Source: a bacterium (GTDB lineage: Bacteria; Patescibacteriota; Patescibacteriia; Magasanikbacterales; GWA2-37-8). From it: a stretch of DNA of 60,419 bases. Shown piece by piece: positions 18,325-18,639 of this stretch. Location: assembly GCA_043810165.1 (NCBI GenBank), contig JBDROJ010000013.1, positions 1 through 60,419 of the forward strand. The letters run 5' to 3'. The stretch's first letter is position 1; each line of letters opens with the position of its first letter. The notes under the pieces are model-generated. The model did no database searches. It was given only the letters and a program-made list of their open reading frames with translations, and was not told the DNA's origin. Made by a program: the position numbers and the translations under genes.

Positions 18325-18639
18325 ATGGCCGGCACCACCTACACCGTCACCATCATCGAGAACAACGAGTCAAACGTCACCCTGAAGCTGGGGTTCGGTA
18401 CCCCGGCGCAGAACGACGAGATCGTCCGCGACGCGGTCGCGGCGGTCAAGGAGCTCTCCCTCGAGGGTGGGAAGGTCGTGCGCCTGAACGGGCCCGCGTC
18501 GCTGCCGGTGGCCATCGCCATCGCGCACGAGGTCGGGCACAAGTTCGGTGCCGTCGCGGCGTTCGACCCCAAGCTGGGGAAGTACGTCGTGGCGATCTCG
18601 CACGACCCGTCGCTCACGGTGGGCGACCTCATCGACTGA
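18325..18639 (+). CDS. Csx3/Crn3-like protein (candidate cyclic tetra-adenylate ring nuclease fold)
   Basis: 104 aa. GGAG lies 7 nt upstream of the ATG. Third codon positions are almost all G/C. GKVVRLNGPASLPVAIAIAHEVGHKFGAVAAFDPKLGKYVVAISHDPSLTVGDLID aligns, from my memory of A. fulgidus Csx3 AF1864, with GVVISGRGPIWLHCFLAHKYHHTPFVAVYDPRLGAVVVQSHSELREGDVID. This includes the His, Asp (in DPxLG) and His (in SH) positions. Confidence 0.6.
   Translation: MAGTTYTVTIIENNESNVTLKLGFGTPAQNDEIVRDAVAAVKELSLEGGKVVRLNGPASLPVAIAIAHEVGHKFGAVAAFDPKLGKYVVAISHDPSLTVGDLID

Follow-up and report, generated by a model that had tools for sequence, protein, structure and literature searches.

What does a gene of the Csx3/Crn3 family do where no type III CRISPR-Cas system is in sight? 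The accepted view of ring nucleases is that they either switch off type III CRISPR signalling or serve viruses as anti-CRISPRs. The locus that raises this question lies in a 60,419 nt stretch of DNA from a member of the Patescibacteriota (order Magasanikbacterales, GWA2-37-8; GenBank assembly GCA_043810165.1, contig JBDROJ010000013.1, positions 1 to 60,419), which was analysed as a whole and is called the window below. An initial annotation had described a product of 104 amino acids (aa) encoded there as an orphan Csx3/Crn3-like protein with no CRISPR-Cas context, possibly a stand-alone ring nuclease with an anti-type-III role. Our analysis confirmed the observation and lent partial support to the interpretation. 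We favor, with a rough probability of 0.55, the explanation that the gene belongs to a CRISPR-independent Csx3(-AAA) module, which is here reduced to its Csx3 half.

The window open reading frame (ORF) encodes a member of the Csx3/Crn3 family, of the lineage called Csx3-AAA, with a functional-looking domain. Its start codon is preceded by a GGAG Shine-Dalgarno sequence about 9-12 nt upstream. Residues 39-103 of the protein matched Pfam PF09620 (Cas_csx3) with 26.1 bits (E 7.6e-6), exceeding the gathering score of 21. The best-scoring profile was that of PADLOC Csx3-AAA (PDLC01045; E 8.9e-18), in which residues 19-104 aligned with profile positions 12-99 of 286, and the PADLOC Csx3 (CARF) profile gave an E of 1.2e-14. 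A profile built from 47 relatives found the structures of Archaeoglobus fulgidus Csx3 (AF1864, here AfCsx3; PDB 3WZG, 3WZI, and 6YUD) in the PDB with an E of 3.4e-4, and profile-profile comparison with hhalign gave a probability of 94.8%. 

The window protein and AfCsx3 are both about 100 aa long, and their C-terminal 60 residues align, with an identity of only about 30-38% over 56-60 residues. Both contain two His in a helix, followed by Asp-Pro-(Arg/Lys)-Leu-Gly, Ser-His, and Gly-Asp-x-Ile-Asp motifs; this residue pattern had been set out in the initial annotation, and the HMMER alignment to AF1864 returned the same one. The window protein differs in having a longer first helix, one additional residue between the two His, Lys in place of R71, and nothing C-terminal of GDLID, and its gene is not located beside type III cas genes. 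In the alignment of 47 relatives, H68, H72, D81, K83, and H93 were invariant. MAFFT and HMMER paired H57, D69, R71, and H80 of AfCsx3 with H68, D81, K83, and H93, respectively. In AfCsx3 (PMC7371418), conservation is absolute at H57, H60, and H80; H60 and D69, two essential residues, sit on opposing dimer faces, R71 touches the scissile phosphate, and Mn2+ is required.

An AlphaFold2 model of the window protein (mean predicted local distance difference test, pLDDT, of 96.4) has the order beta-beta-alpha-beta-alpha-beta-beta, a predicted alpha/beta fold with CARF- and STAS-like matches. In a Foldseek search of the PDB, the top match was the CARF domain of Cat1 bound to cyclic tetra-adenylate (cA4) (E 5e-4), followed by STAS anti-sigma antagonists. 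These matches agree with published descriptions, in which the Crn3 fold resembles STAS and CARF (PMC12409355; PMC7159879). The ratio of nonsynonymous to synonymous substitution rates (dN/dS) between the window csx3 and six relatives was 0.26-0.55, indicating that the gene is under constraint by purifying selection.

The relatives of this protein were then compared, together with their gene neighborhoods. At E<=1e-3, 364 relatives were retrieved in a protein search; most are about 100 aa long, the closest is 82% identical, and precomputed PF09620 matches are on record for the majority. A scan of GTDB species genomes gave 220 relatives in two clean groups. The cyanobacterial copies share about 50% identity with the window protein and match their hosts in GC content; in 53 of 58 of these loci, type III genes adjoin, namely Cas10/Csm1 or Cmr2, Csm3/Csx7, or a TIGR03985 protein. 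The Patescibacterial copies share 55-86% identity with the window protein, and a type III gene was found in only 1 of 24 loci of the candidate phyla radiation (CPR) type. The term orphan thus fits with respect to CRISPR genes, but not with respect to the family, since the gene belongs to a large, GC-rich clade that is unlinked to CRISPR across many Patescibacteria. In the searched literature, we found no mention of Csx3 and CPR together.

Foreign composition is a clade-wide trait of Patescibacterial csx3, a few host-like copies aside. In the low-GC CPR loci, the GC content at third codon positions (GC3) of csx3 is mostly 0.72-0.98, as compared with flanks of 0.36-0.46 GC; the exceptions are three loci (L008, L011, and L013; loci of relatives are given L numbers), in which csx3 has a GC3 of about 0.5, near host composition. 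The window copy follows the trait, as the initial annotation had noted in placing it on a foreign-composition island. Its GC content is 0.67 (0.41 at second codon positions, GC2; GC3 0.95), as compared with 0.379 for the whole window and with a GC3 of 0.30-0.44 in rpsL, rpsG, fusA, and a neighboring 962-aa ORF. The GC-rich stretch extends from about 17650 to 19060 (approximately 1.4 kb), with a sharp GC jump.

In 21 of the 24 CPR-type loci, csx3 is accompanied by a separate gene for a P-loop protein, which is about 190 aa long and contains the motif GPPRSGKS. The match of this protein to the PADLOC Csx3-AAA profile falls in the AAA half and has an E of 1.5e-56; judged by sequence, the CPR csx3 and P-loop genes represent the cyanobacterial Csx3-AAA fusion split into two. 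Csx3-AAA corresponds to cluster 35 of Shah et al. 2018 (PMC6546367) and to Csx3' of Athukoralage et al. 2020 (PMC7371418); no function is given in the literature for its AAA half. The cyanobacterial relatives adjoin Cas10, whereas Patescibacteria carry the two domains as separate genes and the window is without the AAA half altogether. The absence of this partner makes the window an unusual member of its clade. Within the 60 kb, no homologue of Cas10, Csm3, TIGR03985, MoxR, or the Csx3-associated AAA partner and no CRISPR-like array were found, in accordance with the claim that the gene has no CRISPR-Cas context.

Further genes recur beside Patescibacterial csx3. A divergent TrmB-like regulator is present in eight loci, namely the window (Table 1), L010, L012, L014, L026, L038, L077, and L150; its homologues are located upstream of csx3 in L010, L012, L014, L026, L038, and L077, and L150 has a TrmB-family gene. 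MoxR and VWA genes lie 3' of csx3 in L001/L009, L004, L034, L048, and L084. The Csx3 domain has been described as an effector in nucleoside triphosphate (NTP)-dependent conflict systems (Kaur et al. 2020, PMC7159879), which are a precedent for Csx3 outside CRISPR-Cas. In those systems, however, Csx3 is a fused effector domain, whereas the window protein is a free 104-aa protein and no MoxR, VWA, or NTPase genes are present in the window. CPR islands also encode a protein of about 170 aa with GGSL...DVDVRF motifs, which is fused to the AAA protein in L010 and is, from its motifs, a possible nucleotidyltransferase. We also observed a 610-aa protein in which a second Csx3 domain comes after an AAA domain (AAA-Csx3 order, PADLOC C3a67). 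Neither the 610-aa nor the 170-aa protein has a Pfam family, and neighboring ORFs of 498, 765, 170, 143, and 115 aa in CPR islands matched no Pfam, NCBIfam, or PADLOC family.

The CRISPR-independent module that we favor would work as follows. By homology with Archaeoglobus Csx3 (PMC7371418), the protein would form dimers, and a ligand with four adenosines (cA4 in the homologue) would bind the face containing D81 and K83. A second dimer would stack head to tail, bringing H68, H72, and H93 together with Mn2+, and the ring would be cut into linear di-adenylates in a Mn2+-dependent reaction. Patescibacterial Csx3, normally with its separate AAA/P-loop partner, would constitute a module working without adjacent type III CRISPR-Cas. 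This module appears to move horizontally among Patescibacteria, because its GC-rich composition is kept against AT-rich hosts. In the window, where the partner is missing, a lone cA4-type binder and phosphodiesterase would remain; csx3, flanked by two copies of an RNA motif (motif 1, described below), appears to be part of a heavily structured transcript that ends at the terminator downstream.

Several observations weigh against this explanation. No source of cA4 is visible in the 60 kb, and CPR genomes seldom carry CRISPR-Cas, according to PMC6509639; a pure ring-nuclease role would therefore be without an obvious substrate. Because the usual AAA partner is missing, csx3 could be a remnant. 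The protein scored 26.3 bits with the NCBIfam equivalog TIGR02579 and thus missed its cut-off of 55.4, and a single-sequence phmmer search of the PDB gave only a weak E of about 0.1; these results indicate a divergent subfamily member rather than an archaeal-type equivalog. At the level of single residues, R71 of AfCsx3 is replaced by K83, and H72 aligns opposite H61, or opposite H60 if counted back from the Asp. The His, Asp, and His positions that had been named as important for cleavage are thus retained and invariant in 47 sequences, but the equivalence to H60 is ambiguous by one residue. The cA4-contacting loop of AfCsx3 (S44-G45-R46 and I49) has no confident alignment to the window protein; an N-G-P-A-S-L loop is nearly invariant, yet it was placed in two differing registers, and no Arg clearly matches R46. 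Finally, AfCsx3 itself was absent from the Foldseek top 50 for the AlphaFold2 model.

An unlikely alternative is that csx3 is an anti-defence factor, carried as mobile-element cargo or as a weapon of an episymbiont, which would destroy type III cA4 and silence the effectors activated by cyclic oligoadenylate (cOA), in analogy to AcrIII-1. The GC-rich, foreign composition of the segment and the lack of cas genes nearby are consistent with such a role. In addition, seven Csx3 relatives (33-60% identity) were found on IMG/VR viral contigs (L088-L094; 13-189 kb, six of them >70 kb), where phage-type DNA methyltransferase and PAPS reductase-like genes are among the phage-like neighbors, and an anti-type-III role is possible for this reason. 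The island is also bracketed by direct repeats with tRNA-like genes, and ordinary tRNA genes are located approximately 200-720 bp 5' of the module in L019, L026, and L038, which gives weak support for tRNA-adjacent integration.

On the other hand, the island contains no integrase, phage, or plasmid gene, and the recipient Patescibacteria, according to PMC6509639, rarely have a CRISPR-Cas system to evade; both points weaken an anti-type-III role. Most relatives keep the AAA partner, and some keep a TrmB-like regulator or MoxR/VWA genes, which gives the locus the look of a cellular module rather than of a minimal anti-CRISPR. A survey of ring nucleases in 28,114 curated phage genomes listed other families and no Crn3 (PMC12409355), and the protein has no secretion signal for reaching a host cell, a point that was not tested further. 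AcrIII-1/Crn2 (DUF1874) is comparable in its degradation of cA4, proposed here by analogy, and in being a stand-alone small protein on foreign DNA. However, it has an unrelated fold and no sequence similarity to the window Csx3 (a Pfam scan of the latter gave no DUF1874 match at E<=10), it is metal-independent whereas Csx3 is Mn2+-dependent (PMC7371418), and the window island is not recognisably viral.

The bracketing units were described in the initial annotation as antisense-regulated tRNA-like neighbors. They are direct repeats of approximately 290 bp with 79-86% identity, which exactly enclose the GC-rich island. Each consists of a promoter, a terminated small RNA (sRNA) of about 65 nt, and a tRNA-like gene of 75 nt with an 8-bp acceptor stem, a 6-bp D stem, an encoded CCA end, and an anticodon loop of 8 nt with a UUACCA core. 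The sigma-70-like promoter at 19331->19304 matches at 12 of 12 positions. The 5' end of each sRNA is the complement of the anticodon arm encoded in the same unit, with 18 of 18 nt matching in one case and 16 of 19 (84%) in the other, and where the units differ, the changes are compensatory. With Rfam, the tRNA-like genes matched Tymo_tRNA-like at 40.7 bits (gathering score 40), and the tRNA-Sec matches were sub-threshold. The link of these neighbors to csx3 is not conserved. As conserved partners of csx3 the tRNA-like genes were rejected; they are found beside csx3 in no relative locus, and we therefore regard them as the insertion neighborhood.

A second alternative, which we consider quite doubtful, is that Csx3 is directed at RNA rather than at cA4. 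It would bind or cut a structured RNA next to its gene, motif 1, through an AAAA loop, or act on RNA ends made by a ribozyme, in a protein-RNA module for autoregulation or in a pair resembling a type III toxin-antitoxin system. Motif 1 consists of a hairpin, UUnGAGC, an optional insertion hairpin, and an H-type pseudoknot with the loop UAGAAAAYGA, of which the four adenosines are invariant. It begins 14-20 nt past the csx3 stop codon in eight loci (the window, L150, L014, L012, L048, L071, L151, and L096), and a second copy is located upstream of csx3 in the window, where it is a short form without the insertion hairpin, and in L048 (8745-8807).

The structure of motif 1 is backed by covariation, which was tested on an alignment of nine copies with 500 shuffles and a control in which the pairing partners were slid. 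In the alignment, 85.6% of the cells pair, as compared with at most 47% with slid partners, and changes on both sides occur in 9 of 14 pairs. The percentage paired, the number of double-change pairs, and the covariation score were reached by 0 of 500 shuffles; the count of pair types was not distinctive (84 of 500 shuffles). No Rfam 15 family matched 18093-18153 or 18653-18800 at E<=5. In an exact-pattern scan of metagenomes, 54 stretches were returned, which were mostly chance matches; the clear full-motif matches (L096 and L138) adjoin csx3, and a weak variant (L102, L123, and L147) occurs without csx3. The sole viral match, L095, was rejected as a chance match inside a coding region. Motif 1 qualifies as a candidate for a new structured RNA that may act as a ribozyme, a riboswitch, or a protein-binding element, and self-cleavage is a conjecture.

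Type III hammerhead ribozymes with a complete core were detected 60-180 nt past the csx3 stop codon in five CPR loci (L010, L019, L026, L038, and L086), in the same intergenic region in which the window and other loci have motif 1. The L010 and L019 hammerheads are both below the RF00008 gathering score of 48.5. Around the window csx3, no hammerhead (CUGAUGA...GAAA core, three stems) or Rfam family was found, with just sub-threshold or borderline tRNA-like matches. An RNA-directed role also agrees with the lack of a visible cOA source and with the history of AfCsx3, for which RNA deadenylation was the first activity described and which has been crystallised together with an RNA tetranucleotide (PMC7371418). 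However, AfCsx3 has an affinity for RNA about 100-fold weaker than for cA4 (PMC7371418), the co-location may just be due to elements that process or stabilise the mRNA of a mobile operon, and the covariance model gave no match in six cyanobacterial loci, the cyanobacterial relatives not having been searched systematically. A bolder form, which we hold to be equally doubtful, is that csx3 and motif 1 together constitute a mobile, GC-rich, CRISPR-independent protein-RNA module, in which motif 1 would be a new class of self-cleaving ribozyme or a four-adenosine ligand for the cA4 pocket of Csx3, and Csx3 would have RNA or RNA ends as its target instead of cA4 made by Cas10.

It is improbable that the lone csx3 is a non-functional leftover of a Csx3-AAA module that lost its AAA partner. 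The absence of a partner that most related loci possess points in this direction, as do the small size of the island and a neighboring frame without homologues. This frame, ORF-A (94 aa), was examined as a partner protein and rejected, since it had no homologue among 5.8 billion proteins and no Pfam match and its region consists of successive hairpins; it is probably not a gene. In contrast to what a decaying remnant would suggest, the csx3 ORF is intact with all invariant residues present, its product is 81-82% identical to its closest relatives with a dN/dS <1, and the Shine-Dalgarno sequence, both RNA motifs, and the terminator are kept.

An artefact, with the GC-rich segment being an assembly chimera or the ORF a chance frame in structured RNA, has the sharp GC jump and highly structured flanks (fold z-scores against shuffled controls of -8.6 on the plus and -8.9 on the minus strand for 17655-18324, which includes the csx3 5' leader, and -7.5 for 18637-19062; -3.3 for the ORF itself) in its favor, but is very hard to credit, as many independent assemblies show the same arrangement of a GC-rich csx3 within AT-rich flanks, the protein is conserved and its gene has a GC3 far above its GC2, and the structural model is of high confidence.

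The coordinates of the features are collected in Table 1. In addition to motif 1, two further conserved elements lie 3' of csx3. D3b and its partner D3a form a direct repeat with 79% identity, and the D3 element also occurs 3' of csx3 in L014 (more diverged), L019, L034, and L150. Motif 3 has an outer helix of CGGG/CCCG in the window and UCGAG/CUCGA elsewhere, with a variable inner stem; compensatory changes were seen by eye, and RNAalifold on six loci gave weak support because the alignment was poor. The segment between the left bracket and the upstream copy of motif 1 has a GC content of 0.61 and about ten strong local hairpins, and may be an RNA domain, a set of DNA palindromes, or an orphan gene. 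The terminator between csx3 and tRNA-like 2 looks bidirectional from its sequence.

Outside the island, the 60 kb contain housekeeping genes, including those for tRNA synthetases, tRNA-guanine transglycosylase (TGT), UvrD helicase, rpsL, rpsG, and fusA, and the window ribosomal protein S7 is 68-78% identical to named Magasanikbacteria/Patescibacteria proteins, which places the host in the CPR. Two further observations were made between the TrmB-like gene and csx3. At 16556-16765 (+), a strong promoter (TTGACA-17-TATACT with extended TG) is followed by an RNA of approximately 170 nt that ends at a bidirectional terminator (16734-16763), a candidate sRNA; L014 has a promoter-to-terminator unit in a similar place (~8270-8490) with patches of sequence similarity. 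A 68-nt stretch at 17163-17228 is 78% identical to L014 8827-8893, although these are distant Patescibacterial loci, and contains an apparent stem (CCGAGUGCGUCC...GGGACAUUCGG) around a variable hairpin.

Table 1. Positions of csx3, the RNA elements, and neighboring features in the window and in related loci.
Feature	Position	Strand	Remarks
csx3/crn3-like ORF	18325-18639	+	ATG to TGA, 104 aa
RNA motif 1, copy a	18093-18153	+	Covariance model R1, 49.4 bits, E 5.7e-8; 172 nt 5' of csx3 start
RNA motif 1, copy b	18653-18751	+	Covariance model R1, 91.3 bits; 14 nt 3' of csx3 stop
RNA motif 1, related loci	L150 4630-4730; L014 10344-10434; L012 10350-10411; L048 10293-10354		Covariance model
RNA motif 1, related loci	L071 2003-2112; L151 2593-2702; L096 1788-1882 (-)		Covariance model
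Repeat D3a	18130-18197		Partner of D3b
Repeat D3b	18728-18795	+	Hairpin then GAGCC..GAGGAAGCAGAUCCUC
RNA motif 3	18868-18915	+	Helix enclosing a hairpin, conserved GCACA loop
RNA motif 3, related loci	L150 4797-4858; L153 2463-2524; L012 10430-10487; L014 10502-10560; L096 1709-1770 (-)
Hammerheads, related loci	L010 10351-10405; L019 10485-10527		Rfam RF00008, 37.8 bits (E 7e-7) and 30.3 bits, respectively
Hammerheads, related loci	L026 ~10370-10425; L038 ~5720-5800; L086 ~7790-7840		Identified by eye
GC-rich segment with many local hairpins	17655-18090	+	Contains ORF-A, 17730-18014
TrmB-like helix-turn-helix regulator	15592-16410	-	Pfam PF01978; host-like GC
Terminator hairpin between csx3 (+) and tRNA-like 2 (-)	19029-19059	both?	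Minus-strand call and plus-strand T-run
Left bracket	17360-17648	-	Promoter, ~65-nt sRNA, tRNA-like 1 (17360-17434)
Right bracket	19063-19348	-	Promoter, ~65-nt sRNA, tRNA-like 2 (19063-19137)
Additional proteins of CPR islands	L004 7051-8883; L150 5600-6112; L151 2903-3409; L010 7643-8941

The window protein adds a member to a known family, in a context that varies on those already described. If it is simply a cA4 phosphodiesterase without a local substrate, the finding would be a modest extension of that family. A well-conserved Csx3 clade in a phylum that is mostly free of CRISPR-Cas is nevertheless a poor fit to the role of an off-switch or an anti-CRISPR, and the Patescibacterial clade makes it possible to study, away from CRISPR, what Csx3-AAA, a family defined in 2018, does. 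The pseudoknot RNA linked to csx3 is the most interesting lead; with a hammerhead occupying the same intergenic region elsewhere, motif 1 is a candidate for a new class of functional RNA.

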